From an uncultured Eubacteriales bacterium (GTDB lineage: Bacteria > Actinomycetota > Coriobacteriia > Anaerosomatales > JAHIQC01): a stretch of DNA of 64,000 nucleotides. Location: positions 47,391 to 111,390 of the forward strand of contig CAZMFQ010000009.1 of NCBI GenBank assembly GCA_964565645.1, read 5' to 3'. This document shows positions 6,135 to 64,000 of the stretch, piece by piece. Position 1 is the stretch's first letter; every line of letters begins with the position of its first letter. Below the pieces are notes generated by a model. That model made no database searches, had not been told where the DNA came from, and saw only the letters and a list, made by a program, of their open reading frames with translations. The position numbers and the translations under genes were made by a program.

Positions 6135-7358
6135 CTACTCGACGATCCGGAACGCGGACCCGACCTGAGCCGACTCCTTCGCGATGTTGGAGAGCTGCTC
6201 TGCACTGCCAGCGACCTGACGCCCGCCCGCCGCCGTCTGCTGGGCTACGGCGGCGACCTCGCGCATGGCCTTGACGACCTGGTCCGTCGCGCTCTTCTGC
6301 TGCTGTGTCGCGGCGGAGATCTCCTTGGCCGCCACGGTCGTCTGCTCGATCATCTCGAGGATCTGGTCGAGGGACTCGCCGGTGACGTGGGCGAGATCGA
6401 CGCCGCCCTGGACCTGCTTGAGCTCCTGCTCGGTGGCGATGACGAGTTCGTTCGCGGCGCTCTGGATCTCGGTCATGATCGTACCGATCTCGCCGGTCGA
6501 GTCCACGACGGACTCGGCGAGCTTGCGGATCTCGACCGCGACGACGGAGAAGCCCTTGCCGGCCTCTCCCGCCCGCGCCGCCTCGATGGCCGCGTTGAGC
6601 GCGAGGATCTTGGTCTGGTCCGCGATCGAGTTGATGATCTCGAGGACCTGGCCGATCTGCTGGCTGCGCTCGCCGAGCGAGAGGATCTTGTTCGCGGATG
6701 CCTGGGACCTGGTCTTGATGTCCTCCATGGCCGACAGGGTGTTCATGACGGCCTGCTGGCCGGACTCCGCACTCCCGAGCGAGGCCTCGGCCATGTTCAC
6801 CACCTGGTTCGCGTTGTCGGCGATCTGGCGGTACGTGGCGGCAAGCTCCTCCATCGTCGCGGTGGTCTCGCTGATGGACGCGGCCTGCTCGGCGGCGCCC
6901 GAGGCCTGCTGTTCTGTCGCCGAGAGGATCTCGCTCGAGGACTGCGCGAGCCTGCGAGAGGATTCCTGCGTCTGTCGGATGAGGTAGACGATCAGATCGA
7001 GCATCTGGTTGTAGGAGCGTGAAAGCGTGCCGAACTCGTCGGGCGTGTCGACATCGACCTTGTGGCCGATCTCGCCCTGGCACGCCGCCTTGACGCTCTC
7101 TACGACGAGATCGAGTGGTGCGATGAACCGTTTGCCCACGTACAGGAAGATCACGAGCCAGCCGATACCGAGGACCGTCGTCCCGGCGAGCAGCAGTATG
7201 ATGTCGCCCTTGAGTTCAGGCGCTCCCGCCAGCTCATCGCCGAAGGAGAGCCACGCCACCCACCACTGGAGCCCGATGAACACCATCATGATGAGGGCGT
7301 TCACAAGCGAGTACTTGTAGAGGAACTTGCTTCTGACCGCGTTGATGATCCTGTTCAT
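6135..7358 (-). CDS. Methyl-accepting chemotaxis protein, two TM helices + HAMP, no periplasmic sensor domain
   Basis: 407 aa. Two hydrophobic helices separated by about 14 residues, a HAMP region, and the canonical signalling hairpin [30 protein letters not shown]. Confidence 0.9.
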
Positions 7359-7379
7359 GCGTGCGCCTCCAGGGTCTTT

Positions 7380-7898
7380 CTACTTGGCTCCCGCGCCGAT
7401 CGGTTCGAGCACCCTATCCTTGTTGACGAGGCCGATGAGTCGACCGTCGATGTAGATGGAACCGGCGATGAACTCCGCCTGCGATTTGTCGATGGTGGTG
7501 AGCGGAGGCTCGATGCCCTCGCGGGGGACGTCGACGATGTCGCCGATCTCGTCGACCACGATGGCGGAGGTGCTGTTCGCGCCATGCACCACGATCGCGG
7601 GGGCCTGTCCGGCGTCGGTCGTGAGCGCCCCGAGGCGCATCATCCGGGCCACGTCGGTAACCGAGATGATCTCGCCTCGGATGTTGACCACGCCGAGGAT
7701 GAAATCCGGCACGCACGGGATCGGCGTGATGAGGTACTCCTGGTATATCTCGCGGACGTCGTCCACGTTCACCGCGTACCACTCGTCCCCGAGCCTGAAG
7801 AGCAACACGGAGATGAGGTCCGCGGCGATCTCCTCGGCGGACTCCTGAGCGAGCGATTCGGCACGCTTGCGCAAGACCTCGTCGGCCTGCTCGGCCAT
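7380..7898 (-). CDS. cheW: Chemotaxis coupling protein CheW
   Basis: CheW-like domain (LLFRLGDEWYAVNVDDVREI, VNIRGEIISV). Start placed at ATG 7898, preceded by AGGAGA. The longer ORF to 7982 would overlap the upstream gene by 53 nt. Confidence 0.85.
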   Translation of the reverse strand: MAEQADEVLRKRAESLAQESAEEIAADLISVLLFRLGDEWYAVNVDDVREIYQEYLITPIPCVPDFILGVVNIRGEIISVTDVARMMRLGALTTDAGQAPAIVVHGANSTSAIVVDEIGDIVDVPREGIEPPLTTIDKSQAEFIAGSIYIDGRLIGLVNKDRVLEPIGAGAK

Positions 7899-7929
7899 GG
7901 ATCTCCTGCCGTTCGGCTCCGTCACGCGA

Positions 7930-8475
7930 TCACCACCCCTCGCCGTCGGTGAGCCCGAGTGGAGCCACGAGCTTCTCGACACTGAGCATGAACACGAGGT
8001 CCGTGTCGAGATGGCAGACGCCGATCATTCGGTCGGCGAGGGCGTGCAGCTTGGGAGGGGCCGAGACGCACCCCTCGGGGACGTCGATGACGTCCTCGAC
8101 ATCGTCGACCACCAGGGCCACGAAGCCCTGGCCGACGCGGCAGATGATCATGGGGGTGTCGAGACGGTACTCCTCGGCGGGCAGCGAGAGCAGGGCGCGC
8201 ATATCGATCGCCGGGATGACGCTCCCGCGCAGGTTGACCATACCGATGACGGCGTGCGAGCCGCCGTGGGCCTCGGAGAGCGCGACGATCTGCTGGATCT
8301 CCTGGACGCTGTGGATCGGAAGGGCGTAGCGCTGACCGCCGAGGTGGAACGCGACCATCTGGCTGATGACCGCGACTTCGGGCTCAGGCTCCGCCGGCGC
8401 GACGACCTCGACGGCAGGCGTCTCCTGCTCCACGGGGGCCGGCTCGGGGGCGGGTGTCTTCTTGCGAGGGGTCAT
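7930..8475 (-). CDS. cheW: CheW-like coupling protein with Pro/Glu-rich N-terminal extension
   Basis: Start at ATG 8475 (MTPRKKTPAPEP...). CheW domain (FHLGGQRYALPIHSVQEI, VNLRGSVIPAIDM). The upstream part of the 282-aa ORF is Arg/Pro/Ser-rich and looks non-coding. Confidence 0.8.
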   Translation of the reverse strand: MTPRKKTPAPEPAPVEQETPAVEVVAPAEPEPEVAVISQMVAFHLGGQRYALPIHSVQEIQQIVALSEAHGGSHAVIGMVNLRGSVIPAIDMRALLSLPAEEYRLDTPMIICRVGQGFVALVVDDVEDVIDVPEGCVSAPPKLHALADRMIGVCHLDTDLVFMLSVEKLVAPLGLTDGEGW

Positions 8476-8491
8476 CGTCTGTACCGCCCGC

Positions 8492-10363
8492 TCATTCCGC
8501 GAACCGCAGCACGCGGTTGAGTTCCTCGGGACTGACAAGCCCCTCTTTGACCTTGGCGAGCCCGGAAGCGACCATCGGCCGCATCCCGGCGGCGCGCACG
8601 ACCGCCGCGATCTCCTCGGCGGACGCGCCATGAGCGATCGGCGCCCGGACCTGCTCGGTGAAGGGCAGGACCTCGAAGATGCCGGTGGCGCCCTGGAAGC
8701 CCGTGTTCGCACAGGCGGGACAACCCGAGCCGCGCTTGGACGGCGTGCCGGGCTCCGCACCGGGGATCCGGTCCGCAAGCGGGCTCTTCTGCGGCGCCGA
8801 GCAGTGCGGGCAGTTCATGCGCACGAGGCGCTGGCCCACACCGAGCGTGAGCGCCGAAGCGAGCGAGACCGGCTCGACGCCGACGTCGAGCATGCGGCGC
8901 ACGCCCGAGACGATGTCGCCGCCGGAGAAGGTGGCGATGACGAGCTTGCCGACGCCGGCCGCCTCGACCGCGAGATGGACGTCCTCGACGGACTGCATCG
9001 CATCGATGGCGATGACGTCGGTGTCCTGGCGGATGCCCGCCGCGAAGTAGCCCTCGGCGCCGACCGGTGAGCCGGGGCTCACGAGCACCTGCGCGACGGC
9101 GGGGATCTCGTAGTCGATGGAGCGCTCGACCGAGTACACGGTCTTGCCGTATTGCGCGGCGTGCTGCAGCAGTGCGTAATAGGTGGACGAGCGGCCGCCC
9201 GCGACCGGCGCGCACACGAGCAGGATGCCCTTGCCGCGCTCGACCATCGCGTGCAGCGCGCGTACCTCGGCCTCGTTCATACCGAGCTCGGCAAGACCTC
9301 GCGGCGCTGCCTTGTCCGCAGCGACCGAGATGACCACGCGCTGTCCGGCGATCGTCGGTACGGCCGAGACCGTCACGACGAGGTCGCGGTCCCCTATGTG
9401 CGACTTGACGCGACCGAGCGCCGGACGCGAGGACTGCACCGAGGACAGGCGCGCGAAGTTCTTGAAGCCGTCCACGAGTGCGCCCTGGAGCGAGAGCGGG
9501 GCACTCGCGATCTTCTCGAGGCGGCCGTGCACCCGATAGACCAGGAAGAAGTCGTCCTTGTAGGGCAACAGCTGGATGCGGTTCGCGCCGCGCACGACGG
9601 CATGCTCGAGGATGTCCGAGACGAGCACGGCGACCTTGCGCGCGTCCGCGACGGCGAGCACGTCGAGGTCGATGGCCGCCGAACCCTCGGAGACCGCGGT
9701 CTCGACGACCTCCTCGATCCCGCGCACCTCCTCGACGGGCGCATCGGCGGGGACCTCGACGGCAGGCGCGTCGGCGACCACAGGCATGTCGTCGACCACC
9801 GGAGCCTCGAAGAAGTCCGCGACGTCGACCTCCGGCTCCTCGGCAAGGATCGATTCGGGCGTGGGCTCGAGCAGGCGTTCGGCGAGTTCGGCGGGCGTCT
9901 CGACCGCCGCGACGGGCTCCTCGGCGACATCGCCGTAGTACTGCACGATCGCGCCGCGCACCGATGCGGCGTCGGAGAGCACCGCTTCGATCTCGAGTCC
10001 GAGTTCGGCGGCGAGCGAGTCGAGCTTGAAGACGTCCATGGCATCCGCGATCGCGATCGTGAGCATGCCCTCGATCTCAAAGAGCGGGAGCACGTTGCGC
10101 GCACGCGCGACCCCGACGGGAACGAGCAGCAGCGCGTCGTCGTCGGGAGCGTAGCTCGAGAGGTCAACGCGCGGGATGCCGAGCTCGTCCTCCATGACCG
10201 ACTCGACGTCGGCCGGCGTCACGAGCCCCCGCTGCGCAAGGACGTCGCCGGGCGTGGTGCCCGCCGACTCGGCAGCGTCGGTGACCGTGCTGATCTGCTC
10301 GATGGTGAGCAGCCCGGCGTTCGCGAGCGCATCCAGAACGCGTGAAGTGATCGAATCAGGCAT
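8492..10363 (-). CDS. PilB/GspE-family secretion-ATPase homologue with degenerate catalytic motifs (predicted pseudo-ATPase)
   Basis: 623 aa. T2SSE_N-type N-terminal domain, acidic P/E/V linker, C-terminal ATPase fold with the tetracysteine CPHC...CPAC retained. Walker A reads APVAGGRSST, Asp box VERSIDY, Walker B DTDVIAIDAMQS, His box VGKLVIATFSGG. Confidence 0.75.
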   Translation of the reverse strand: MPDSITSRVLDALANAGLLTIEQISTVTDAAESAGTTPGDVLAQRGLVTPADVESVMEDELGIPRVDLSSYAPDDDALLLVPVGVARARNVLPLFEIEGMLTIAIADAMDVFKLDSLAAELGLEIEAVLSDAASVRGAIVQYYGDVAEEPVAAVETPAELAERLLEPTPESILAEEPEVDVADFFEAPVVDDMPVVADAPAVEVPADAPVEEVRGIEEVVETAVSEGSAAIDLDVLAVADARKVAVLVSDILEHAVVRGANRIQLLPYKDDFFLVYRVHGRLEKIASAPLSLQGALVDGFKNFARLSSVQSSRPALGRVKSHIGDRDLVVTVSAVPTIAGQRVVISVAADKAAPRGLAELGMNEAEVRALHAMVERGKGILLVCAPVAGGRSSTYYALLQHAAQYGKTVYSVERSIDYEIPAVAQVLVSPGSPVGAEGYFAAGIRQDTDVIAIDAMQSVEDVHLAVEAAGVGKLVIATFSGGDIVSGVRRMLDVGVEPVSLASALTLGVGQRLVRMNCPHCSAPQKSPLADRIPGAEPGTPSKRGSGCPACANTGFQGATGIFEVLPFTEQVRAPIAHGASAEEIAAVVRAAGMRPMVASGLAKVKEGLVSPEELNRVLRFAE

Positions 10364-10372
10364 CGGGCGTAC

Positions 10373-10753
10373 CTACCCCTGCGCCTTGGAGAGCTCCTCG
10401 GCCACCGCAGCCAGGAGGGTTTCGGGCTCGATAGGCTTCGTGAGGTATTGGTTCGCGCCGGTCCGAATGCCGGTCGCCATCGCCTGCTCCTCGGTCTTGG
10501 CCGTGAGCATGATGATCGGGATGGCCTTGTACTTCTGGTCGAACTTGAGCAGCCGGCAGACCCGGTACCCGTCCAACTTGGGAAGCATGACGTCGAGAAG
10601 GATCAGATCGGGCATCTCCGCACGAGCGGTCTCGAGCGCTTCCGCCCCGTCTGACGCCGTGATGACCTCATAGCCGCCCGACAGGAGGATCGCCTTGATC
10701 ATCTCCAGGATGGTCGGACTGTCATCGACCGCCAGAATACGAGCACTCGCCAT
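10373..10753 (-). CDS. cheY: Single-domain response regulator CheY
   Basis: 126 aa. ILAVDDSPT, LILLDVMLPKLDG, IIMLTAK receiver signature. Confidence 0.85.
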   Translation of the reverse strand: MASARILAVDDSPTILEMIKAILLSGGYEVITASDGAEALETARAEMPDLILLDVMLPKLDGYRVCRLLKFDQKYKAIPIIMLTAKTEEQAMATGIRTGANQYLTKPIEPETLLAAVAEELSKAQG

Positions 10754-30401: not shown

Positions 30402-30754
30402 TGGTGGAGGTGGCGAGAGTCGAACTCGCGTCCACGATACATACTCGGGAAGCATCTCCAGGCTCAGTCACCGGTGGAGTCTCGGAGCGTACGTTACCCG
30501 GTGACCCGCGGCGTACGATCCATAGCGGTTCGATCTTGAGTGACGTCATACCGCCCACGTCCGTCACAGCACTCCCCTTTAATGGCGCCTAGCCGGTGGC
30601 GGGGAGGTCCACCGGGTCGGCGTCGCTGCTCTATTTAGGCAGCGAGGGCGAAATCATTGTCGACGTCTATGCGTCGGTACCCCTGTTTAACGAGGCGAGG
30701 AGACCTCGGCCTGCTTCTTCCGTCGAACGTATCATGTCGAAACCGGTCACCCCC
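30402..30754 (-). ncRNA. ssrA: tmRNA (SsrA)
   Basis: Minus-strand 5'-GGGGGTGACCGGTTTCGACATG... and 3'-...GGACGCGAGTTCGACTCTCGCCACCTCCACCA. Acceptor stem GGGGGTG/CACCTCC with a G3:U pair. The internal tag reading frame ends ...DNDFALAA-TAA (30635-30661). Confidence 0.92.
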
Positions 30755-51509: not shown

Positions 51510-51926
51510 TCATTCGCTAACCAGGAGATACCAATGCTCTGCGAGTCGCTCAACGCTTGTGCCAGTAGGCGCTGCTGCGTCGTCTGCGGTGTAGTAGATC
51601 TCCCGCGCAGAGCCAAGAATCCCCCTGAATGTGTAGAAACCTACAGCGTCAGCGTTGCCGCCATTCTCAGACACGAACACTTCGCCATCCGCCGATAGCG
51701 TGGCGAACTCCTTGGGCAGTCGCATGTGGTCGAAGCTGAGCACGGATGTCCCGTGGTCACTCAGTTCATCGTCTACCCACTGAACGGCTGCTTCGTACTC
51801 GTCGCGGTTGTCAAAGAACTGCTGCTTGTCCCGATCATCCTGAAGGCCGGCGCAACCCGCACAGAACGCTAGAAGTAAGACCGCCAGCGCCAGCTTGGAG
51901 GCTGCGGCTGCGGAATGCCGTTGCAT
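51510..51926 (-). CDS. Predicted lipoprotein, candidate immunity/partner of the Rhs toxin tip
   Basis: Signal peptide with lipobox (LAVLLLAFCAGC). Start at ATG 51926, or 51956 overlapping the Rhs stop. Lies in an AT-richer region (a hand-counted line at 52201-52260, in the adjacent toxin-tip CDS, gave 50% G+C). Confidence 0.55.
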   Translation of the reverse strand: MQRHSAAAASKLALAVLLLAFCAGCAGLQDDRDKQQFFDNRDEYEAAVQWVDDELSDHGTSVLSFDHMRLPKEFATLSADGEVFVSENGGNADAVGFYTFRGILGSAREIYYTADDAAAPTGTSVERLAEHWYLLVSE

Positions 51927-51948: not shown

Positions 51949-54549
51949 TCACGCATACAGCCACCATCCGTAAGATTTCCCGTTGCCCGCACGCACGTAC
52001 ATGTTGGGCAGTCCCCCGCGCGCCGCTCGATATACGACCCTAGCTCGGGGCGAGTACGCGTATGTGTCGTACCCATAGTCAATCCAGAAGTTGTTGTCTA
52101 TTTCGTGGCGAACCTGCTCCCAGGTCCGACTACCATTCACCCCGACCAGGGATGCGATGCCCTTTGCCCCTCCGCGGGGGAACATGACTGATGAGAGCAC
52201 GTAGCCATAGTGTATGTTGCCCCAATCATCGAGGCTGATGTTCTGTCGGCCGAACTTGAACACATGATCTGTGCGATGTCCCGAATACTTATTCGCGACG
52301 TCGGCCTTGAAGTCCCAAGGCCCACCTGTCTGTACCAGGCCCTTGAACCACAGGAGCCAGCCCCCGAACGCCTGTGCGATGTTGTAGTGAAGGAGATTGT
52401 ACATCAGCTTCTCGCTGGCATACCCCGCATTGACCTGCATCATCTCCCACATCTTCTCCCATTCATCGACTCTGGGACGCAGTGTGACGGCCTTTGCCCA
52501 CATCCCGCTCGGATCCACGGCGCCTACCGGATCCCCACCACAGTACTGATATGCGCTCTCCTCACCGTCCGCCTTCGCAGGGTCCTTCGACAGGAGCTGT
52601 CTCGTGGCCGGATCGTAGGTCCTTGCTGACAAGTAGTGCAGCCCCGAGTGTCCATCAAAGCAGTAGCCCGCGTAGCGCAGCGGCTGCCTCTCGAGGATCC
52701 TAGCTGCTGTCACGGCATCGATCGAACCAGCAGCGACCGACGTGCATGCTTCTGACCGGTGCGTCCCCCACGCGTCGTAGCCGTAGGCGGCGAAGGGACT
52801 CCCGCTCGTATTCCGTAGCTCGACCACATCGCCTCGGTCGGTCGTCACCATCACGAATGGAACGGCAGCATCCTGTTCGCTTCGGTACACACCAGCGTAC
52901 GGACGTCCCTGACCGTCATACAGGTATGAGATCTTCCACACGTCGACGGCGCTCGTCCCTTCGATCGTGCGGGTCGCCGCAAGCGATAGAAGCGACAGGC
53001 CCTCGTAGACGTAGCAGGTGTCGGTGGTGGTGGTGCCGTTGGCGGAAGGCTCGATCACCACTGAGGAGATTCGCTTCCCGGCGGCATCATACCCGTACGT
53101 CGCTGAGACTCCCTGCGACGTCGCGTAGCTCGCGAGACGTCCCGTCCCGGTGTAGCCAAACACCCGCTCTGTCGGGTTGGAAACAGGTCCCTGCGCCGTC
53201 CTCCAGCCGTTAGCCGAGTCGAACGCGAACGTGGTCTCGACGCTCCCGCCGACCTTGATGTTCTCCAGCCTGTTGCCTGCTCCATAGTGATAGGTCCTCG
53301 TGAGGACCCCGACCGTCTCGGTGGCGATGTTGCCCGCTGCATCGAACACGTAGGTCGCAGACCCCGACGTAGTATCGGATGCCAGTCGCCCAGTCGCGGT
53401 GTACGTGTACGCAGCCGCAACGGAGTTCGCGAGCGGGAGTGTGCCTGTGTCGGCAATCTTGCGCCCGCTTGAGTCGTCGTACTCGTATCCGATGGTAGAA
53501 GTCTCGATCGACGTCGAGAGCAGCTTGCCGTCTTCATCCGCAAACGTACGAACGAAATCGGTATCCCCCACCATCCAACCGGTCTCGCGTCTCACTGTAT
53601 CGGTCCCTGTCACCGAGCGCGTGAGTGTGGAAGTACCGTCAAGTGCGGTCACGCGCGAGATCTCGACCCCGCTCGCATCGACGGTCGCGGTGGTCGTCAC
53701 TCCGCCGTAGCGCGTCACCAGTGTCGTTGATTGCCCCGGAGCCGACGGGTAGATGAACTCCCGGTGGACTCCCGTGAGCCCGTCGTCGGTCGCGGCGGTG
53801 CGGCCAAGTGAATCGTATGTCGTATCCGTGTGGCGCACGTCGCCCGCAGCAGTGGTATGCACTTCTTCGCACGTCTGTCCGAACTCATCGAAACGGCTGC
53901 GCACGGCAGCGCCATCAGGATCGGTTGTCGACAGCACGTGGCCCGCTGGGTCGAAGGCGGTTCGCGTCGTCTTGCCCGCCACCGTGCTCGCGGTGACGCG
54001 ACCGGCGGCATCGCAGGTGCTTGAAGACTCGATCCCGTCCGCATCGACAGTGGACAGCACCTGTCCGAGCACGTTGTAGCTCGTGGTCGAGGCGGTGGGG
54101 TTGCCCGCACCAGTGACAGAGATCTGGCGCGAAAGCAGGTCGAAGGTGAAAGTGGTGCTCACGCCGTCGGCCGTCGTGCTCGAAACCGTGCGACCCCCCA
54201 GGTCGTTTCGGGTAGTGGTGGTACCGTCCTGCGTGGTCGTCGAGACTTGATTGCCGGCATCGTCGTAGACGTAAGTCGCATACGTGCCATCGGGGTTGTC
54301 GACTCTCGCTGTCGTGCCATCAGCATTGTAGGTATAGCGCGTCGGGGTGGTCGTGCCTGGAGCGGTAGAACTCAAGAGCTGCCCGTATGCGTCATAGCTC
54401 GAGATGCTCGCATTTGCCGCGATGTGGGAATCGAGCCCCTCGCCCCACTGCGCCACGACGTTACCGCGTGCATCGTATCTGCTCTCTGAGGGCAGACCGC
54501 CGGTGAGCGCGTCGTCGGAGCTCAGCTCACGTCCGAGCCCGTCGAACAC
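51949..54549 (-). CDS. Rhs/YD-repeat polymorphic toxin, N-terminally truncated (orphan or pseudogene)
   Basis: Numerous YD-type repeats (YDAYGQL, YNADGT, YDDAGN, YDSLGR, YDAAGK, YLYDGQGRP). Core-end motif GGDPVGAVDPSGMW at 52498-52539. A 182-aa variable C-terminal domain follows. Rhs-like sequence starts at VFDGLGRELS (GTG 54549) with no N-terminal secretion or targeting domain. Confidence 0.8.
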   Translation of the reverse strand: MFDGLGRELSSDDALTGGLPSESRYDARGNVVAQWGEGLDSHIAANASISSYDAYGQLLSSTAPGTTTPTRYTYNADGTTARVDNPDGTYATYVYDDAGNQVSTTTQDGTTTTRNDLGGRTVSSTTADGVSTTFTFDLLSRQISVTGAGNPTASTTSYNVLGQVLSTVDADGIESSSTCDAAGRVTASTVAGKTTRTAFDPAGHVLSTTDPDGAAVRSRFDEFGQTCEEVHTTAAGDVRHTDTTYDSLGRTAATDDGLTGVHREFIYPSAPGQSTTLVTRYGGVTTTATVDASGVEISRVTALDGTSTLTRSVTGTDTVRRETGWMVGDTDFVRTFADEDGKLLSTSIETSTIGYEYDDSSGRKIADTGTLPLANSVAAAYTYTATGRLASDTTSGSATYVFDAAGNIATETVGVLTRTYHYGAGNRLENIKVGGSVETTFAFDSANGWRTAQGPVSNPTERVFGYTGTGRLASYATSQGVSATYGYDAAGKRISSVVIEPSANGTTTTDTCYVYEGLSLLSLAATRTIEGTSAVDVWKISYLYDGQGRPYAGVYRSEQDAAVPFVMVTTDRGDVVELRNTSGSPFAAYGYDAWGTHRSEACTSVAAGSIDAVTAARILERQPLRYAGYCFDGHSGLHYLSARTYDPATRQLLSKDPAKADGEESAYQYCGGDPVGAVDPSGMWAKAVTLRPRVDEWEKMWEMMQVNAGYASEKLMYNLLHYNIAQAFGGWLLWFKGLVQTGGPWDFKADVANKYSGHRTDHVFKFGRQNISLDDWGNIHYGYVLSSVMFPRGGAKGIASLVGVNGSRTWEQVRHEIDNNFWIDYGYDTYAYSPRARVVYRAARGGLPNMYVRAGNGKSYGWWLYA

Positions 54550-54554
54550 ATGCG

Positions 54555-54806
54555 TCAGTTGTCGATGTTGCCAAGGAAGTCGATGTCGCGGGTGGGTCGG
54601 CCAAGTGGAGTGCCCCACGCGCGAAGCATGATCGCGCCCTTCACGATGAGGCGATCTGCCCACTCCGTTTGTGCGAGCCGGTAGAGGAACCGTTCGATCG
54701 CGAAGTACTGGAGCACCTGGTCGTATGAGTCCCCGCTCGCCTTCGCTTCGTTCAGTAGGCGCGCACGAACGGACGCGGGTACGTTCTTCAGTTCCCGCTG
54801 ACTCAT
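54555..54806 (-). pseudogene. abiEii: 3'-truncated abiEii (DUF1814 nucleotidyltransferase toxin) fragment
   Basis: 83 aa (NVPASVRARLLNEAKASG..YDQVLQYFAIERFLYRL....ADRLIVKGAIML..WG....RPTRDIDFLG) matches only the N-terminus of a family I remember as about 280-300 aa. ATGA overlap with abiEi. Confidence 0.7.
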
Positions 54807-55420
54807 TCCATCGCCTCAAAGTACGGACGCACGACCTTGGAGACACGGTCAATCTCAGCGTAGTCCATGATTGCATCGCGTGTGGCTTTGCGGCTGCGCA
54901 CCGTCTCTCGGAGTGCCTCGAGAGCGACATCGAGCCCGATCTTGTTCCTGAACTTGAAGCAGTCGGCAACCGTCTTGGCAGGGTTGAACACCCTCACCGT
55001 GGTGCCGCCGATGGAGTGCTCTTCAATCCCCGCCGTGAGTGCATCGCCGGACATTCGATACACGCGAACGGGCGGGTAGTCGAGCTTGGGCCGCCTATCC
55101 TTTGGCCCGATGGCGATGCTCACTCCGGAGGGAATCTGAGTTCCGATCTCATGGAAATCCAGCGCGCTCACGAGGCAGAGCACTGCGCCTGGCGCGCGCT
55201 CCGCGACCGCAACAACGTCGTACTTGCTCGGCCCTTGGAGTTCAGTGAGTCGGTACACACCTCGAGTAAGCTGCTCGAGAAGCTCCGCATCCCGCATTCC
55301 ATACAGCGTCGAGTAGTGCACACCTCGCTCCGCGGCCTCGCGCGTCCTGAGCGTGCCGCCGGCTTGCCTGAACACATCCGCGGCGTGCCTGATCGCATTC
55401 TCTGATGGAAGTCGCTTCAT
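54803..55420 (-). CDS. abiEi: AbiEi-family (type IV TA) antitoxin / transcriptional regulator
   Basis: GTLRTREAAERGVHYSTLYGMRDAELLEQLTRGVYRL winged-helix N-terminus and a C-terminal ADCFKFRNKIGLDVALEAL motif. Start at 55420; the ORF extends to 55477. Confidence 0.75.
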   Translation of the reverse strand: MKRLPSENAIRHAADVFRQAGGTLRTREAAERGVHYSTLYGMRDAELLEQLTRGVYRLTELQGPSKYDVVAVAERAPGAVLCLVSALDFHEIGTQIPSGVSIAIGPKDRRPKLDYPPVRVYRMSGDALTAGIEEHSIGGTTVRVFNPAKTVADCFKFRNKIGLDVALEALRETVRSRKATRDAIMDYAEIDRVSKVVRPYFEAME

Positions 55421-55532
55421 GAGGTCATTGTGATAGATATGTCGGACATTGTGAACATCTTCCGACGTTTTCATCACACGTATGGCGCGTCGTGATGGAC
55501 ATGCTCGTAGGCGAACGGCTGCCGCGGATCCG

Positions 55533-55967
55533 CTAGGGCAGCAGTTCGATCGCCGCAGCGAAGGTCGGGCGGTAGCTCGCGAGTCGGCTGTCGAAGCTCA
55601 GGATGCGCGCGCAGCGCTGTCGCTCACATGCGGCAAGCAACGTGCAGTCCGCGAACCCGAATCCCGTGTCCGCATAGCGCAGATCGATCTCGCGGGCGAT
55701 CTCGAGCAGTTCGGCGTCGGCCTGGACGATCTCGATTCCCGAACGCATGAACGCATCCCAGAACGAACGCTGGGCGTCGATTCCCACGCGCGCACCAAGA
55801 AAGCCCATGGTCTCGCCGAGGATAGTCGCAGGAACGCCTATGCCGCCGGGTGCATGCGACTGCAGTGCGTCGGCCGCAGTGGCGTGCAGTGACTCACGCG
55901 GACGAGCGGCGGCGATGAGCACGCTGGAATCCGCGAGCGCCCTCACGGGCGGTTCTCCCGCTCCCAC
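55533..55967 (-). CDS. vapC: PIN-domain toxin VapC (second copy)
   Basis: 144 aa. LADSSVLIAA at the N-terminus, GFADCTLLA and ILSFD acidic motifs. Overlaps the upstream antitoxin gene by 25 nt. Confidence 0.7.
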   Translation of the reverse strand: MGAGEPPVRALADSSVLIAAARPRESLHATAADALQSHAPGGIGVPATILGETMGFLGARVGIDAQRSFWDAFMRSGIEIVQADAELLEIAREIDLRYADTGFGFADCTLLAACERQRCARILSFDSRLASYRPTFAAAIELLP

Positions 55968-56215
55968 TCGCCGTCGGGCTCGAAGTACTCGGCCAGGCCG
56001 TCATCGACATGCAGGGCGAGGTCAGATTCGGGCCGGGCATCTTCGATGCAGCCGACGAGTGCCGAGATACTCACGGCACGTTCCTCGGCATGCGTGGTTC
56101 GATACTCGGCGATCGCCTCACGGGCGATCTCGGCCATCGAGGTGCCGCGCGACTCCGCCTCGCGGGCGAGGTAGCGGTGCAGCTCCTCCGGCAGATACAT
56201 CATGGTCTTCTTCAT
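55943..56215 (-). CDS. vapB: Ribbon-helix-helix antitoxin (VapB-type)
   Basis: Start at ATG 56215 (MKKTMMYLPEELHRYLAREAESRGTSMAEIAREAI), an RHH pattern. Confidence 0.65.
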   Translation of the reverse strand: MKKTMMYLPEELHRYLAREAESRGTSMAEIAREAIAEYRTTHAEERAVSISALVGCIEDARPESDLALHVDDGLAEYFEPDGEWERENRP

Positions 56216-56224
56216 GGTGACACG

Positions 56225-56272
56225 AGCATAGCACCAGCGTATGACATATGTCACTCATATATGTCATACGCT
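56225..56272 (-). promoter_or_regulatory. Promoter/operator of the second vapBC: TGACAT-N17-TATGCT overlapped by a perfect 14-bp inverted repeat
   Basis: IR AGCGTATGACATAT (56236-56249) / ATATGTCATACGCT (56259-56272) with a 9-nt spacer. On the minus strand the -35 is TGACAT (56253-56248) and the -10 is TATGCT (56230-56225), preceded by TGC. Confidence 0.5.
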
Positions 56273-56288: not shown

Positions 56289-57191
56289 CTACCCGCGCGA
56301 CTCCTTGAAGCCCTCGCCGATCGCCTCGTGCACATCGGAGATGATGAGCAGTGCCCGCGGATCGAGCGTGTTGATGATCGACTTGAGCGCATCGATCTCG
56401 GTCCGCGACACGACCACGAACAGCATCTCGCGGTCTTCGCCCGAGTACACGCCGCGCGCGCTGATGGCGGTACACCCCCGACCCAGGTCGTTGATGATCG
56501 CACTGGAGATGCGCTGCGATTCCTCGGAGATGATGAACGCGGCCTTCTCGACGGACAGGCCCTCGAGCACCAGGTCGATGGTCGCGCCGGAGACGAAGAT
56601 CGCGACCGCGCCATAGAGCGCGAGCTCGGGGCCGAACTTGAGGGCCGCGATGATGGTGACCACCGCGTCGGTGATGAGCATGAGTTGGCCCACGCCGAGC
56701 GGCACGCGCTTGGAGAGCAGCTGCGCGATGATGTCGGTGCCGCCGGTGTTGCCGCCCGCCTTGAACACGAGGCCGAGTCCGAGTCCGCACACCGCACCGC
56801 CGTAGAGCGCCGCGAGCAGGAAGTCATGCTCGGCGAGGTGCGGCGTGATCGGGGCGAACAGGTCGATCGCCAACGAGAGCCCGACGATGCCGTAGATCGT
56901 GCGCGCCGCGTAGCGCCAGCCGCGCGCCCGAAGCGCGAGCAGCAGCAGCGCGACGTTCATCACGAGCATCTGGATACCGATGGGCAGCGTGAGCCCGACG
57001 TCCTTGGCGGTGTAGTAGATGACGGTCGCGAGGCCGGAGACACCGCCGGCAGCGATCTTGTTCGGGATCAGGAACGCATCGAGGCCCCAACCCGTGAGCA
57101 CGATGCCCACGGTGATGAGCGTGTAGTCGCGCAGCCAGCGGTTGCGCAGGATGGCGTCGGGGCGCAGCTTGCGCGCGGCACTCGCGATCAT
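56289..57191 (-). CDS. YitT-family membrane protein (DUF2179 C-terminal domain)
   Basis: 300 aa. FLIPNKIAAGGVSGLA motif, five to six TM helices, C-terminal soluble domain. Confidence 0.8.
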   Translation of the reverse strand: MIASAARKLRPDAILRNRWLRDYTLITVGIVLTGWGLDAFLIPNKIAAGGVSGLATVIYYTAKDVGLTLPIGIQMLVMNVALLLLALRARGWRYAARTIYGIVGLSLAIDLFAPITPHLAEHDFLLAALYGGAVCGLGLGLVFKAGGNTGGTDIIAQLLSKRVPLGVGQLMLITDAVVTIIAALKFGPELALYGAVAIFVSGATIDLVLEGLSVEKAAFIISEESQRISSAIINDLGRGCTAISARGVYSGEDREMLFVVVSRTEIDALKSIINTLDPRALLIISDVHEAIGEGFKESRG

Positions 57192-58128: not shown

Positions 58129-61100
58129 CTAGTGCAATACGCTCGCCGCATCGTCGCGGACGCCTTGCGACAGGGCCGCCAATCCGCCCAGGTAGCGTAT
58201 CTCGGAGATGAAGTCGGCCTGCGCCGCAAGCTCCGACTTGACGCCAGGGTCGAGCGAGGTGGCCGGGGTGAGCAGCAATACCGAGCCCGAGTGGCCCTGC
58301 ATCACGCCACCGCACAGGGCGTCGGCGAACCCGGTCCCGTTCGAGAGCGCGAGGTGGTCCCAGACAAGCCCGTCATCCACGCCCGTGCGTGCGACCGCGA
58401 GTGCCGTCGCATAGCGCGTCGCCCCCTGCACGCGGGAGTTGGCGATACCGGCAGCCGCAAGCTGCCCTTCGGCCGCGGCCGGGACAGCGCCGGTGCCGCC
58501 CAGAACGACCACGTCCGTCACGCCGACCTTCTTCATCGCTGCGATGGTCGCAGACGAAAGCCCGGTCGGGCCGCTCAGGTACAGCGGACGCCCGAACGCG
58601 GTCGAGAGCGGTGCGGCGGCGAGCGCGTCGGCGAACGACGCCCCGGTGGCCACGTAGGCCGTGCCGTCGAAGCCGCCGTGCTGCTCGGCGACCGCACGGG
58701 TCGCGATGGCAACGGCGGTGCTGTAGCGATCGGCGCCCCACAGGCGCTCGACCGAGGTGCCGGGACCGAGCGCTGAGCGGACAGCGCCCTCGACGCCGAC
58801 GGACAGGGCGCTCGTGCCACCCAAGATCAGCACCTTGGTAGGCGCGAGGCGGATGAGCTCGGCGCGCGTCACCGCGGGCAGGGCATCCGTCGCAGACAAC
58901 AGGATCGGTGCGTCGGTCGCGCCGGCGAGCGCCGCACCGCCCATCGCGTCAGGCCAGTTGATCCCCGACGCAAGGAGCACGGTCTGCGCTCCGTCAGGGT
59001 GAGAGGCCTTGGCGACCTGGACGGCCGTCTCATAACGATCGGCGCCGGAGAAGGTGGTCTTCTTGGTCGCCGAGACGCGGACCGTGAACGCATGCGTGCC
59101 CACCGCGGTCTCGTTGCCGGCCACATCGACCGCGCGGTACCTGAGCGTGTGAGCGTCCGTACGCGCGAAGCTCACAGCTGTGCCCTGCGTCTCGGGCCCG
59201 CCGTCGATCGACCAGTACACGCGCGCAACACCCGAGTGGGCGTCGGTGGCGACCAGCGTGAAGTGCGCCGCATCGACCATCTCTGCGGAGTCGGGAGAGA
59301 CGACCACCGCCGGTGCCGTCTTGTCGATGCGCACGGTAGCGGTCTCCGTCGCACAGCGATTGCCCGCCACGTCGAGCGCGGCGTACTCGATGGTCGTGGT
59401 TCCCTCGACAGCGACCGGGATCGACGCGTTCGCCTCGGCAACCGAACCGGCGCTTGCGGCACCGTCGGGAGCGGTCACGACCCACTCGATGCCCGCGACG
59501 CCCGAGAGCGTGTCGGTCGCCGAGAGCGTGACCGTCGCATCCGTGGTCCGCCACGCGTCCGACGCATCATCGGTCGCGATCGGAGCGGACTCGTCCACGT
59601 ACACGTTCGTGGTCTTGGGCGTCTCCGTGTTGCCGAGGAGATCCACCGCACGGTAGGTCACCGTGGTGGTTCCCGGCGCACTCACCTCGAACGGGCCCTC
59701 GTAGAGCATCCATCCGCCCGAAGGAGCGGTGCGGTACTGGATGCTCGCGACGCCCGAATGGGTGTCTGTCGCACCCAGCGTCACCGTGACCGGCGTGCTC
59801 GACCAGCCCGTCACATGGGAGGCGTCCGACACCGGCGCGCTCTTGTCGATGCGCACCGTGGCGGTCTCGGTCGCACACCTGTTGCCGACCGTATCGATCG
59901 CCGAGTACTCGATGACCGTCACACCCTCGGCGGTCACGGGTACCGTCGCCGTCCCCGCCGCGACCGATCCGGAGCCGACCGTGGCGCCCGAGACGGCCCA
60001 GCGAAGCGACTCGACGGTCGAATCGACGTCGGTGGCCGTCAGGGTGACCGTCACATCCGTCGTCACCCAACCCGCGGGAGCGTCATCGCTCACCGCCGGC
60101 GGCGCCGAATCGAGCCAGACCGCCATCGTGTCCGGCTCCTCGGCATTGCCTACCGCATCGACGGACCAGAAGGTGACGAGCGTCTCACCGGAGGTCGAAA
60201 GCGGGAACGGACCGTTGTACAGGGTCGCACTGCCGGACCCGAGGCGGTACCAGGTGCTCGCCACACCCGAGTGCGCATCGGACGGCGTGAGCGTCACGGT
60301 CGCCGGAGTGCTGGCCGAGCCGGGGGTGTAGGTGGCCGTCGTGGAGGGTGCGGTCTTGTCGAGCCGAACGGTCACCGTCTCGGTGGCGCAGCGATTGCCC
60401 ACCGCGTCGGTGGCCGAGTATTCAACCGTTGTGGTGCCGTCGAGCGTCACGCTGAGCGGCGCGGTCGACGCGGCGAGCGCGGCGTTCGTGACGCCACCGT
60501 CCGGATCGATGCGGCGATACGACAGCGTCGCGACACCCGAATCGGGGTCGTTCGCCGAGAGCGCGAAGTCCACATCAGCGTTGCGCCAGCCGGTCGGGGC
60601 GTCGTCGGACACACTCGGGGCGACATCGTCCACGAGAACCATTGTTGTCTTGGGCGCCTCGGTGTTGCCCGCGACGTCGGCGGCCCAGTAGGTGACGGTC
60701 GTGGTCCCGGTCGTCGAGACCTGGAACGCTCCCGCATAGCGGATCCACGCGCCCACGGGCGCCGTGCGATACCAGATCGAATCGACTCCCGAGAAGGGGT
60801 CGCCGGACTGAAGCGTCACGCTTACCGGCCCGGTCGTCCAGCCCGAGGTGTGCGTCGCGGTCGAGGCCGGTGTGCTCTTGTCGATGCGGACCGTCGCGGT
60901 CTCGGTCGCACAACGGTTGCCCGCGGTATCGACCGCCGAGTACTCGATGGTGGTGGTGCCCTCGGCGGTCACGGGGACCGCAGCGGGACTCGATGCCGAG
61001 GAGCCTGCACCGCTGCTCGCGCCTGCGAGCACCCAGTCGATGGAGGCGATACTCGAGTGCACGTCATACGCGGTGATCGTGACGGTGCTATCTGCTGTGC

Positions 61101-64000
61101 GCCAGGTCGTCGGTGCGTTGTCGGAGACGACCGGCGCCTCGGTGTCGACGGTGACCTCGCTCGCTGTCGCCGCGACATTGCCCGCGACATCGCGGGTCCA
61201 CGCCGTGACGGTGTGCTTGCCCGACGGACCCGGCGAGAACGGGGCGCCCGTGTAGAGCTGGGGGGCTCCCCCGTCAACGCGATACCACACGCTCATGAGC
61301 CCCGACACGCTGTCGGACGCCACGAGCGAGACCTGCGACGGTGAAGCGATGATGCCCAGGCCCGGCGCGGTCTTGTCGATGCGCACCGTCGCCGTCTCGG
61401 TCGCGCAACGATTGCCCGCGTCGTCGATCGCCGAGTACTCGATGGTCGTGGTGCCCTCGGCGCTGACGGCTACGGTCGCCGTATCGGTGGCCACGACGGC
61501 CACGGGAGCGCCCGGACCGTTGACCACGACATCCAGCCCGACGACGCCCGACATCGCATCGGTCGCCGTGATGGTGACGGTGGTGTCACTCGTGAGCCAG
61601 CCGCCGAGCGCGTCGTCGGTGACGGTCGGCGGGGTCGTGTCGTCGCGATCATAGGTGACCGAGACGCCCTGCAGCTCGACACCGGCGCCCGCCTCGATGC
61701 GTACGACGATATCGATGAAGCGAGACTTCGGAAGTGCGGACAGGTCACTGCGCTCGGAGGCACCGAACACGCGACCGAAGTAGTTGCCGCTGCCGGTCGT
61801 CCAGTCGATCGGGAGCCCATCCATGCCCAAAGCCTCTGACCAACTCAGGCCATCCCCCGACAGTCGCACGCCGAACTTGACCGCGCTCCCGGGCGAGATC
61901 GTCGCGCACTCGGAAACCAGGCGGCTCCACCCAAAGAAGCCCGCGGAATCCCCGACCGCGCGAAGCCCGACCGAAGTCCCGCTGCCTCCCAGAGTGCCGG
62001 TCTGCCGCAAGCCGGAGGTGTTGCACTGGCCCCAGTAGTCGTCGCCGGTCGCGACCACCGCGCCATCCGACCTCAGGGCGACGGTGTGCCACATGCCCGC
62101 GGACACCGCAGTGCCGTCCCTCCAGGCCGAGGTGTTGCATTGGCCATCGGCGTTGCCGCCGACCGCAAGCACGGTACCGTCCGTCTTGAGGGCGACGGTA
62201 TGGTACAGACCCGCGGACACCGCCGCAACGCCCGTCCATGACGAAGTGTTGCACTGGCCATCGCTGTTGCTGCCGGTCGCGACCACCGTGCCGTTCGTCT
62301 TGAGGGCGACGGTGTGGCACTGGCCCGCAGACACCGCCATGACGTCCGTCCAGGCCGAGGTGTCGCACTGGCCATTGAGGCCATCGCCGATCGCGACCAC
62401 CGTGCCGTCCGATTTGAGGGCGACGGTGTGGTACGCACCCGCCGACACCGCGATGACGTCAGTCCAGGCCGAGGTGTTGCACTGGCCTTGGCTGTTGCTA
62501 CCGGTCGCGACCACCGTGCCGTCCGTCTTGAGGGCGACGGTGTGGTACCTGCCCGCCGACACCGCCGTGACGTCCGTCCATGCCGAGGTGTTGCACTGGC
62601 CCAGGGTGTTGCTGCCGGTCGCGACCACCGTGCCGTCCGACCTCAGGGCGACGGTGTGCAACACGCCCGCCGACACCGCCGTGACATCCGTCCAGGCCGA
62701 GGTGTTGCACTGGCCATCGGCGTTGCCACCGACGGCGACCACCGTACCGTCCGACTTTCGGGCGACCGTGTGGTACCCGCCCGCAGACACCGCCGTGACG
62801 TCCGGAACGGTGACACTGCCTGGCAGACGCGTGGTATTCGCCGCACCACCTACGGTCACGGCCTCACCGGTGGTGCTGGCGTTGTGCTCGAAGTCCTCCT
62901 GAAGGTCCCACGTGAACTGCCGGTACGACCACACAGGTCTCGGCTGAAGGACCGTGATCGTCATGTCGTGAGAGGCAGCCGGAGCCACGCCGTTGGCGGC
63001 ATGAATGGTCACCGGGTAGACGCCGCCGGTCTTCTTGCCGAGAGTGCCGGACAACACGCCGGTCCCGTCGCCATTGTCAGTGAGGGAGAGTCCAGACGGC
63101 AGTGCACCGGTCACCGACAGCGCAGGCGCGGGATACCCGCTCGCCACTATCGACAGCGACGCGGGCTGCCCCGCCGTCACCGTGGCCTCGCTCGTCGCCA
63201 CGATCGACGGCGCCTGCAAAACGGTCAATGTGAAGGCGTCGTTCAAGTCCCCGCCGACACCGTTGCCGGCAGAGAGCTCAAGCGGGTAGATGCCACCGGT
63301 GCCTGTGGCGGGAGTCCCCGAAAGGGTGAGCGCCGAGGTCGTCGCGCTCATGGAACCCGCGTAGGCAGTCGCAAGCCCGCTCGGAAGAACACCCGAGAGG
63401 CCGAGCGTCGGCAGCGGGTAGCCGTTCGCCGTGAAGGTCTCCGTCTGCGCGGCGCCGACCGTGAACGTCACGTCACGCGAAGTGAGCTTCTCCGGGGCAT
63501 GCCGGACGTGGATCGTGAGCGTTTGGTCTGTGGGGCCGCCGATGCCGTTGTCCGCGCGTAGCACCACGGTGAAGGTGCCGCCCGGCCCGTCCGGCACACC
63601 GGCGATCGCGCCCGTGCCGTCGCCGTGGTCGACAAGCGTCAAGCCCGAAGGCGGCGCGTTCAAGTGGCCGAGCTGAGCGACCGGGAAGCCGGCGGCGGAG
63701 ACTTCGAAGGAGCCGTACGCACCGGCGGTCACCGTCATCTCGGCTGCCGAGACGAAACGCGGCTTCTCGAGCACCGTCACGTTCACGGCGACAGAGGCAT
63801 CGGTACCTACACCGTTCGCCGCGACAAGCGTCACCGGATAGCGACCGCCGTCACCCACGACAGGAGTGCCAGCGAGCGTACCGGCAGCGGTCGTCTCGGC
63901 GACGGATCCTCGGTAGGTGAACGCAAGGCTTGCGGGGACGGTGCCCGACATCGACAGCGTGGGCAGCGGCCACCCGTCCGCGGTGAAGGTCTCCGTTCGA
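58129..64000 (-). CDS. Giant cell-wall-anchored surface protein (5' end outside window)
   Basis: More than 1956 codons are open to the window edge. The upstream frame reads ETFTADGWPLPTLS before the first Met, continuing the repeat pattern. Domains: four or more putative Ig domains (G.P.P.L...G.LPSGL), 7 RCC1-like repeats, a beta-sandwich-like region, 10 Ig-like/OmpL47-type modules, and 3 CWB2 cell-wall-binding repeats (GADRYETA, GADRYSTA, GATRYATA). Confidence 0.85.
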   Translation of the reverse strand, partial: RTETFTADGWPLPTLSMSGTVPASLAFTYRGSVAETTAAGTLAGTPVVGDGGRYPVTLVAANGVGTDASVAVNVTVLEKPRFVSAAEMTVTAGAYGSFEVSAAGFPVAQLGHLNAPPSGLTLVDHGDGTGAIAGVPDGPGGTFTVVLRADNGIGGPTDQTLTIHVRHAPEKLTSRDVTFTVGAAQTETFTANGYPLPTLGLSGVLPSGLATAYAGSMSATTSALTLSGTPATGTGGIYPLELSAGNGVGGDLNDAFTLTVLQAPSIVATSEATVTAGQPASLSIVASGYPAPALSVTGALPSGLSLTDNGDGTGVLSGTLGKKTGGVYPVTIHAANGVAPAASHDMTITVLQPRPVWSYRQFTWDLQEDFEHNASTTGEAVTVGGAANTTRLPGSVTVPDVTAVSAGGYHTVARKSDGTVVAVGGNADGQCNTSAWTDVTAVSAGVLHTVALRSDGTVVATGSNTLGQCNTSAWTDVTAVSAGRYHTVALKTDGTVVATGSNSQGQCNTSAWTDVIAVSAGAYHTVALKSDGTVVAIGDGLNGQCDTSAWTDVMAVSAGQCHTVALKTNGTVVATGSNSDGQCNTSSWTGVAAVSAGLYHTVALKTDGTVLAVGGNADGQCNTSAWRDGTAVSAGMWHTVALRSDGAVVATGDDYWGQCNTSGLRQTGTLGGSGTSVGLRAVGDSAGFFGWSRLVSECATISPGSAVKFGVRLSGDGLSWSEALGMDGLPIDWTTGSGNYFGRVFGASERSDLSALPKSRFIDIVVRIEAGAGVELQGVSVTYDRDDTTPPTVTDDALGGWLTSDTTVTITATDAMSGVVGLDVVVNGPGAPVAVVATDTATVAVSAEGTTTIEYSAIDDAGNRCATETATVRIDKTAPGLGIIASPSQVSLVASDSVSGLMSVWYRVDGGAPQLYTGAPFSPGPSGKHTVTAWTRDVAGNVAATASEVTVDTEAPVVSDNAPTTWRTADSTVTITAYDVHSSIASIDWVLAGASSGAGSSASSPAAVPVTAEGTTTIEYSAVDTAGNRCATETATVRIDKSTPASTATHTSGWTTGPVSVTLQSGDPFSGVDSIWYRTAPVGAWIRYAGAFQVSTTGTTTVTYWAADVAGNTEAPKTTMVLVDDVAPSVSDDAPTGWRNADVDFALSANDPDSGVATLSYRRIDPDGGVTNAALAASTAPLSVTLDGTTTVEYSATDAVGNRCATETVTVRLDKTAPSTTATYTPGSASTPATVTLTPSDAHSGVASTWYRLGSGSATLYNGPFPLSTSGETLVTFWSVDAVGNAEEPDTMAVWLDSAPPAVSDDAPAGWVTTDVTVTLTATDVDSTVESLRWAVSGATVGSGSVAAGTATVPVTAEGVTVIEYSAIDTVGNRCATETATVRIDKSAPVSDASHVTGWSSTPVTVTLGATDTHSGVASIQYRTAPSGGWMLYEGPFEVSAPGTTTVTYRAVDLLGNTETPKTTNVYVDESAPIATDDASDAWRTTDATVTLSATDTLSGVAGIEWVVTAPDGAASAGSVAEANASIPVAVEGTTTIEYAALDVAGNRCATETATVRIDKTAPAVVVSPDSAEMVDAAHFTLVATDAHSGVARVYWSIDGGPETQGTAVSFARTDAHTLRYRAVDVAGNETAVGTHAFTVRVSATKKTTFSGADRYETAVQVAKASHPDGAQTVLLASGINWPDAMGGAALAGATDAPILLSATDALPAVTRAELIRLAPTKVLILGGTSALSVGVEGAVRSALGPGTSVERLWGADRYSTAVAIATRAVAEQHGGFDGTAYVATGASFADALAAAPLSTAFGRPLYLSGPTGLSSATIAAMKKVGVTDVVVLGGTGAVPAAAEGQLAAAGIANSRVQGATRYATALAVARTGVDDGLVWDHLALSNGTGFADALCGGVMQGHSGSVLLLTPATSLDPGVKSELAAQADFISEIRYLGGLAALSQGVRDDAASVLH
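59074..61629 (-). repeat. Five tandem pairs of alternating Ig-like modules (A-B)x5
   Basis: A modules end in ..EGTTTIEYSA.D.AGNRCATETATVRIDK.AP (GNRCATET invariant, 5 copies). B modules carry ..D..SGV.S.WYR......Y.G.F.....G..TVTY.A.D..GN.E. Confidence 0.75.
62002..62799 (-). repeat. Seven tandem 114-nt coding repeats (38-aa RCC1-like blades)
   Basis: Seven repeats with unit consensus V.AVSAG..HTVAL..DGTVVA.G.N..GQCNTS.W.. The DNA string GCCGAGGTGTTGCACTGGCC recurs six times on the plus strand. Confidence 0.85.

Follow-up and report, generated by a model that had tools for sequence, protein, structure and literature searches.

How did the beginning of one toxin gene come to run straight into the end of another? 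The question is raised by a locus on the minus strand of a 64-kb window (the whole stretch of DNA that was analysed, 64,000 nucleotides of contig CAZMFQ010000009.1 from an uncultured actinobacterium). In this locus abiEi and the first part of abiEii, the antitoxin-type and toxin genes of an AbiE toxin-antitoxin (TA) system, are followed directly by an rhs gene without its 5' part and then by a candidate immunity gene. We find that both toxin genes are truncated and that the abiE fragment has a sharp breakpoint on either side, and we consider it likely that the locus is a recent scar of illegitimate recombination in a resident rhs locus. The features on which the argument rests are listed here by window position.

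55479-55530, no strand: left junction filler of about 50 nt, from alignment
55421-55478, minus strand: 5' end of the abiE module, presumed promoter/operator, from homology and a promoter scan
54803-55420, minus strand: abiEi, 205 aa from ATG 55420 (Pfam AbiEi_4, E 2.1e-9, above cut-off)
54555-54806, minus strand: abiEii stub, 83 codons plus TGA (Pfam AbiEii, positions 1-43 of 238 only)
54554-54558, no strand: right junction (breakpoint), from BLASTN end points and alignment
51949-54549, minus strand: Rhs frame, 866 aa, from GTG 54549 (the start set by gene callers) to the stop at 51949
52780-54549, minus strand: remaining YD-repeat shell, Rhs residues 1-590 (RHS_repeat, YD_repeat_2x)
52501-52779, minus strand: Rhs-associated core, residues 591-683 (TIGR03696, Rhs_assc_core)
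51949-52500, minus strand: C-terminal toxin domain, residues 684-866 plus stop, 183 aa (Pfam Ntox44, E 2.9e-7)
51510-51926, minus strand: candidate immunity gene, 138 aa, directly 3' of the toxin

The right junction and the two truncated toxin genes

An earlier, sequence-only reading of the window had described abiEii as truncated at its 3' end and rhs as truncated at its 5' end, and both descriptions hold. Of the approximately 300 codons of abiEii 83 remain, and other members of the stub's 90%-identity cluster are 287-303 aa long; a homologue search with the 83-aa stub returned only proteins of 65-144 aa, and the full-length AbiEii sequences came from the cluster look-up. The stub ends in ...RPTRDIDFLGNIDN, where full-length cluster mates read ...DIDFLGNIDNSPEAVERAVRECLAV... 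and intact homologues go on as ...GNIDN-SPEAV.... It retains nucleotidyltransferase motifs I and II (KGA...DID) and is without motifs III and IV; the locus lacks a complete DUF1814 nucleotidyltransferase toxin, which would carry motifs I-IV in about 290 aa. In the AbiEii of S. agalactiae, motif III (K173, R180) and motif IV (D192) are each required for toxicity (PMC3985639). By analogy the 83-aa stub would be non-toxic, since the motifs required for toxicity are absent from it.

On the minus strand the junction reads ...GAC TTC CTT GGC AAC ATC GAC AAC TGA CGC AT GTG TTC GAC GGG.... Four other abiE loci (L002, L003/L004, L005 and L011/L012) match the window by BLASTN at 80-86% identity. Their homology sets in at 55478/55445; it runs out at 54557 or 54554 for L002, L003/L004 and L005, and at 54565 for L011/L012, which has a truncation of its own. 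Past AACT, intact abiEii genes continue with C(N)CC (Asn-Ser-Pro-Glu-Ala-Val), whereas the window continues with G ACG CAT GTG. Homology to Rhs starts at ACGCAT (54555) and covers the T-H codons that precede the GTG as well: the window has T-H before V-F-D-G-L-G-R-E, and the Rhs homologues P0003 and P0004 have VTH-A/T-Y/F-D-A-x-G-R-E. The break is therefore placed between 54557 and 54555, with no filler and at most 2 nt of possible microhomology, so that mapping by homologue alignment, as the earlier reading had proposed, resolves the junction to within 2 nt. Because abiEii homology ends at 54557/54554 and Rhs homology begins at 54555, the TGA that closes the stub is, on this alignment, a product of the fusion itself. 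The "eight nucleotides" formerly given as the distance between the two frames are correct from the first base of the TGA (54557) to the first base of the GTG (54549), but only 5 nt (54550-54554) lie between the codons.

The G+C content at third codon positions changes frame at the same point. Over 54558-54806 it is 0.77 in the abiEii frame against 0.43 in the Rhs frame, and it is 0.74 in the Rhs frame beyond the break. Therefore, the open reading frame (ORF) of 1006 aa that crosses the junction is read-through of an open but non-coding frame, its first 140 codons being an artefact, as had been supposed. We also considered a -1 frameshift fusing AbiEii(1-83) to Rhs and rejected it, as there is no slippery heptamer at GAC AAC TGA. 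No Shine-Dalgarno-like sequence precedes GTG 54549 or either of the next two in-frame start codons.

The Rhs frame carries six RHS_repeat stretches (E 1.9e-23) and a YD_repeat_2x match. Its core ends in PVGAVDPSGM (PxxxxDPxGM; residues 674-683, window 52530-52501) and is followed by a variable toxin region, in which the Ntox44 match spans residues 734-787 (window 52189-52350); the GNIHYGY motif of the toxin domain is common to P0006, P0008 and P0010. Shell, core and toxin are 36-48% identical to P0003, P0004 and P0010. The frame begins inside a YD repeat, and its residue 2 aligns to residue 650 of P0010, 661 of P0011, 399 of P0004, 304 of P0008 and 108 of P0003; the longer homologues P0010, P0011, P0004 and P0008 are contiguous across this starting point. 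When P0010 and P0011 are chained onto L013, a relative described below, the break falls near residue 1,610 of some 2,470 aa, and on the scale of the rhs gene of L001 near residue 1,430 of some 2,250, which leaves approximately 1,400-1,600 N-terminal residues missing. The shell that was kept, about 590 aa, is roughly the C-terminal half of the cocoon, the first 45% or so being gone. Among solved structures, P. protegens RhsA (7Q97) aligns with residues 24-228 of the frame through its own residues 612-810, which lie in mid-cocoon, but repeats may align out of register and the match is supportive only. Neither a signal peptide nor a CBM96 or DUF6531 domain was found in the window, which thus provides no N-terminal secretion or delivery region and no complete shell, and no rhs 5' remnant or second rhs gene is present within its 64 kb. 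A search of a genome contig collection for a full-length rhs partner, made with the 866-aa protein, returned one distant match in Bacilli only.

The abiEi gene is intact, as had been reported: its homologues are 205 aa long and the alignment covers residues 1-205 (an alternative start at GTG 55477 would give 224 aa). It encodes an AbiE-type antitoxin or regulator whose N-terminus carries a winged helix-turn-helix (AbiEi_4 / COG5340). The end of abiEi at 54803 and the start of abiEii at 54806 give the 4-nt ATGA overlap of a bicistronic AbiE unit, the same overlapping arrangement as in S. agalactiae (PMC3985639). Exact-product look-ups of P0001 and of the 205-aa AbiEi found neither on record.

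The left end of the module is also sharp. Its region 55421-55478 reads TGTGATGAAAAC...ATCACAATGA, and homology with L002, L005 and L011/L012 begins at one base, 55478 (TGTGATRAAAAC), across four different genomic contexts, a pattern in the sequence which suggests that the abiE module moves as a discrete cassette. Alignment found nothing homologous to the filler beyond it (55479-55530), either between vapC and rhs in L013 or in other abiE loci. A promoter scan found a promoter-like TTCACA-17-CACAAT at 55455-55427, 5' of abiEi, and we presume from the system analysed by Dy 2014 (PMC3985639) that 55421-55478 acts as the abiE promoter/operator. The left end further shows the conserved pattern TGTGATRAAAAC...GTTCACAAAGTCCGA...ATCTATCACAATGA, including inverted TGTGAT/ATCACA elements that are a plausible candidate for the AbiEi operator.

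Independent breaks at nearly the same spot of abiEii occur in close relatives (P0127, P0128, P0283 and L012 1020-1040; window 54555-54580). P0128 has an internal deletion after DID, at about codon 76; P0127 diverges after DIDFLG, at about codon 79; the gene of L011/L012 ends after codon 81, with an HTH_3-Fic pair next; and the break in the window follows codon 83. The break site contains an 8-bp direct repeat, ACATCGAC...ACATCGAC. Among 80 other abiEi loci, an unbiased set from JGI metagenomes, the abiEii breakpoints are more dispersed (47-180). Codons 76-84 could be a hot spot of recombination or deletion at which downstream modules are swapped, or their prominence could be an ascertainment bias of the 83-aa query. 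In addition, abiEii is split into two ORFs in L003/L004 (L003 4376-5287) and L005 (1873-2782), and L015 (6001-9673) encodes an AbiEi that is 77% identical and no abiEii, the type I restriction gene hsdR beginning some 30 nt behind abiEi. This clade seems to have lost the AbiEii toxin repeatedly while keeping abiEi.

Which gene was resident

In order to decide which of the two genes was there before, we compared the neighborhood with those of relatives. The genes flanking the locus are the following.

58129-63951, minus strand: RCC1-repeat/CWB2 surface protein, 1,940 aa
57188-57985, minus strand: PHP-domain protein
56289-57191, minus strand: YitT-family membrane protein
55943-56254, minus strand: vapB-like ribbon-helix-helix antitoxin gene (weak Pfam RHH matches; syntenic and about 92% identical in L013)
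55533-55967, minus strand: vapC, PIN-domain toxin, last gene of the conserved flank (Pfam PIN, E 1.2e-13)
beyond the 138-aa ORF, opposite strand: class II fructose-bisphosphate aldolase (fba), then phosphoribulokinase

L013, a contig from the Logan collection (SRR13192684), is syntenic with this flank and 92.3% identical to window 62529-55531, over 7 kb that hold the surface protein, PHP, YitT, vapB and vapC genes. The homology stops two bases past the vapC stop codon (55531). After a further 102 nt, L013 has the 5' end of an rhs gene (7115-10672), which starts with a signal peptide (MRGLMGGLFGRAVGCALSFCLVTGPVFASA...), carries CBM96 (residues 304-440) and DUF6531 (residues 1067-1137), and along its whole length matches the N-terminal half of the rhs gene of L001. 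Since L013 has an rhs 5' end directly after vapC at this site, we take rhs to be the resident and abiE the newcomer.

The L001 gene (6040-12793) has the full-length architecture of CBM96, DUF6531 and RHS in about 2,250 aa. L001 as a whole (1-22793, from ENA sample ERZ25039602) is an array of rhs genes: the first exceeds 2,099 aa, a second, full-length one is split (1330 + 930 aa) and a third has 1,415 aa, together with at least two small orphan fragments of the rhs C-terminal toxin type with candidate immunity genes. P0003 is the downstream half of the split gene; the two halves (1330 + 930 aa) overlap by 32 nt, and the upstream half has CBM96 and DUF6531.

On this basis the following history can be proposed. 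The ancestral order on the minus strand would have been YitT, vapB, vapC, full-length rhs and immunity gene, with fba next on the opposite strand, and the product of the ancestral rhs would have had a Sec signal peptide with CBM96 and DUF6531, then a YD shell of about 1,000 aa, and lastly the Rhs core with the Ntox44 toxin. Approximately 1 kb of foreign abiE DNA would then have replaced the vapC-rhs intergenic region, the rhs promoter and some 4.3-4.9 kb of rhs 5' coding sequence (1,400-1,600 codons, ~60%). The incoming piece would have brought some donor flank (50 nt), the promoter/operator of abiE, the abiEi gene and abiEii up to codon 83. Either the whole abiE module first came in behind vapC and one later deletion removed everything from abiEii codon 84 to a point inside rhs, or the replacement took place in one step. 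The event would be young because the remnants are without stops or frameshifts and their divergence looks purifying, having accrued mostly under constraint (dN/dS, the ratio of nonsynonymous to synonymous substitution rates, is about 0.08 for abiEi, 0.01-0.11 for the abiEii stub and 0.17 for the shared Rhs shell).

Several points weigh against this history. L013 ends at Rhs residue 1186, short of the part retained in the window, so that orthology of the two rhs genes is positional only. Within the source genome, the search for a second rhs and for further abiEii sequence covered the 64-kb window. One-step and two-step routes fit the data alike. Finally, a second Logan contig, L009 (ERR3839026), is 100% identical to window 62294-55457 and ends 20 nt inside the abiE module; this end may reflect strain heterogeneity, with strains that have and strains that lack the abiE replacement, or multiple copies of abiE in the sample.

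The opposite direction had been favored by the sequence-only reading: there AbiE was the resident, and an orphan cassette (a 5'-truncated rhs toxin gene with its immunity gene) disrupted abiEii by inserting into the locus or recombining with it. That reading described the junction and both truncations correctly, and orphan Rhs fragments are common in the clade (for example L001 14021-15109 and P0002). However, the close relative L013 has rhs and not abiE directly after vapC, and abiE homology begins abruptly at 55478 behind 50 nt of foreign filler, as expected of an incoming piece. Moreover, no 3' remnant of abiEii lies beyond the Rhs cassette: tblastn with the C-terminal 125-176 residues of intact relatives found none in the 64 kb, which excludes a simple insertion into abiEii within the window. 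RHS sequence is present within 6 kb of abiEi in none of the 80 other abiEi loci, and the architecture is therefore a one-off rather than a family. We regard insertion of Rhs into AbiE as unlikely, its direction being probably the reverse of the true one, and "orphan cassette" is better replaced by decapitated main rhs, as no full-length rhs lies upstream in the window.

Other relatives bear on the site as well. L007 and L008, from JGI, carry the same shell (84.5% DNA identity to window 53496-52501), cut elsewhere by the gene of an IS3-type transposase, with a 4-nt overlap between this gene and the rhs remnant (L007 1052-3919, L008 20-3207). DNA homology of L001, L007 and L008 to the window stops at 52501/52500; in L007 and L008 identity stops exactly after DPxGM, and a different toxin with a 155-aa immunity gene comes next. 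Further 3' in L008 is an 82% identical remnant of the window toxin's tail and immunity gene (window 52016-51661). This is the classic displacement of C-terminal toxins described for Rhs (PMC3150448, PMC7043789), with the end of the core as its boundary, and the transposase truncation together with the toxin displacement in L007 and L008 marks the locus as prone to rearrangement. The more distant L094 and L095 (YitT 78% identical) have transketolase genes directly after YitT; they were set aside as uninformative on the rhs site, and they show that vapBC-rhs is lineage-specific.

Within the window the G+C content drops to about 0.60-0.63 across 51.4-55.6 kb from about 0.68 on either side. A search around the island for direct and inverted repeats gave chance-level matches only, and no insertion sequence (IS) ends were found. 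In the surface protein, seven RCC1 repeats and several Ig-like domains are accompanied by three CWB2 cell-wall-binding domains at the C-terminus; its gene contains internal tandem repeats of about 520 nt and is 92% conserved in L013. A 14-nt perfect inverted repeat (AGCGTATGACATAT/ATATGTCATACGCT, 9-nt spacer, 56236-56272) overlaps a promoter-like site just 5' of vapB and is probably the vapBC operator, a putative assignment. The sole tRNA-like gene of the window is a tmRNA gene (30402-30754, tag peptide VDNDFALAA), distant from the island and unrelated to it.

Function of the remnants and the remaining alternatives

What might the products of such a scar still do? As a solo regulator or antitoxin, AbiEi is probably still made from its own, autoregulated promoter. 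The truncated Rhs would be neither exported nor able to form a closed shell around its toxin, because signal peptide, CBM96 and DUF6531 are all missing, along with about 45% of the shell, and there is no ribosome-binding site. The 138-aa product of 51510-51926 is a candidate cognate immunity protein, a role suggested by its position. The exact protein is called in NCBI as P0291 and has no Pfam match, and the 82% identical copy of its gene persists 3' of the displaced toxin in L008. Its N-terminus, MQRHSAAAASKLALAVLLLAFCAGCAG, is hydrophobic and resembles that of a signal or lipoprotein, which hints that this Ntox44 toxin may act on the cell envelope and not in the cytoplasm. The retained candidate immunity gene could still protect against kin that deploy the same toxin, and the remaining core, toxin and immunity gene could serve as a silent recombination cassette.

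A more active role can be imagined, in which the locus is a working operon: a promoter controlled by AbiEi would drive abiEi, the stub, a translationally coupled rhs starting at GTG 54549 and the immunity gene, and the self-cleaving Rhs core would free Ntox44 inside the cell, replacing AbiEii as the effector of an internal TA or abortive-infection module. All genes do lie on one strand, the Rhs ORF is intact over 866 codons, a promoter-like site lies 5' of abiEi, the stretch from abiEi to the immunity gene is free of terminator-like sites in the scan, and only the 5-nt gap separates stop and GTG; orphan Rhs toxins of Salmonella, expressed internally, act as TA modules (PMC7043789). The absence of a Shine-Dalgarno sequence speaks against coupled translation, however, and the signal- or lipoprotein-like N-terminus of the immunity candidate suggests a toxin that acts outside the cytoplasm. 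The architecture is unique among the 80 abiEi loci, with no sign of selection, and a recent event explains the intact ORF equally well. We therefore consider a working operon very unlikely.

The assembly itself is real at this point. A chimeric contig joining two unrelated loci might be feared because the source is apparently a metagenome-assembled genome, because L009 breaks off at 55457, close to the abiE module's left edge, and because the exact junction 26-mer has no match in JGI metagenomes. Against this, the Logan contig L010, from another run (ERR3839024) and a different assembler, is 100% identical to window 55548-52923 over 2,626 bp. It spans both the vapC/abiE and the abiEii/rhs junctions, with the same gene calls (a 223-aa AbiEi, the 83-aa stub and an ORF from the GTG). 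The exact 83-aa product is on record from both NCBI and Logan, and a k-mer assembler would need a shared repeat to be misled, whereas homologues of abiEii and rhs have none in common at the junction. A chimera is thus highly improbable.

Finally, several homologues of 825-930 aa that start within YD repeats (P0003, P0015, P0017) prompt the idea of an Rhs of the TcC kind, naturally short and complete without an N-terminal part, with half a shell, a core and a toxin. This can be dismissed almost outright: P0003 comes from a split gene and an IS element has cut P0002, P0010, P0011, P0004 and P0008 continue without a break across the window's Rhs start, homology to full-length relatives extends 5' of the GTG into the abiEii stop codon, and there is no TcB-like partner, the upstream genes being the abiEii stub, abiEi and vapBC with no RHS elsewhere in the window. 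Naturally short homologues, which the earlier reading had named as evidence that would overturn it, were not borne out for AbiEii either, given its cluster mates of 287-303 aa.

Relation to known systems and meaning of the locus

The decapitated rhs gene resembles the orphan or truncated rhs modules described by Poole 2011 (PMC3150448) and Starsta 2020 (PMC7043789) in its partial shell, core with a PxxxxDPxGL-type motif, variable toxin and downstream candidate immunity gene, as well as in lacking delivery domains and its own start signals. It differs in being a main gene that was beheaded and that does not lie 3' of a full-length main rhs in the window, and in having as its partner at the break a fragment of a TA module rather than rhs or IS sequence. 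Typical orphans also keep much less shell than the 590 aa or so retained here. With the Sec-exported actinobacterial Rhs proteins that carry CBM96 and DUF6531 (L001 6040-12793, L013 7115-10672) it shares a homologous YD shell, core and C-terminal toxin; unlike them, it has lost roughly the first 45% of the shell and, ahead of that, the signal peptide, CBM96 and DUF6531. It also differs from split Rhs of the TcC type, as no adjacent partner gene supplies the other half of the shell. The abiE part shares with type IV TA systems of the AbiE family (Dy 2014, PMC3985639) the AbiEi_4 winged helix-turn-helix, the 4-nt gene overlap and a conserved upstream region that is plausibly an autoregulated promoter; with 83 of about 300 AbiEii codons and no motifs III and IV, it is a solo-antitoxin remnant and not a working AbiE system.

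For annotation, this means that the 1006-aa ORF is spurious, that only remnants stand behind an 866-aa "Rhs protein" and an 83-aa "AbiEii", and that the genome should not be scored at this locus for a working AbiE defence or a deployable Rhs weapon. The scar is an ordinary one in a known kind of hypervariable locus and opens no long-standing question. What has survived is the antitoxin-type gene and the candidate immunity gene; each of the two toxin genes has lost a part. With its two breakpoints resolved and a relative close to the ancestral state at hand, the locus is a clean example of erosion and recombination of toxin and defence islands in uncultured Coriobacteriia-like Actinomycetota.

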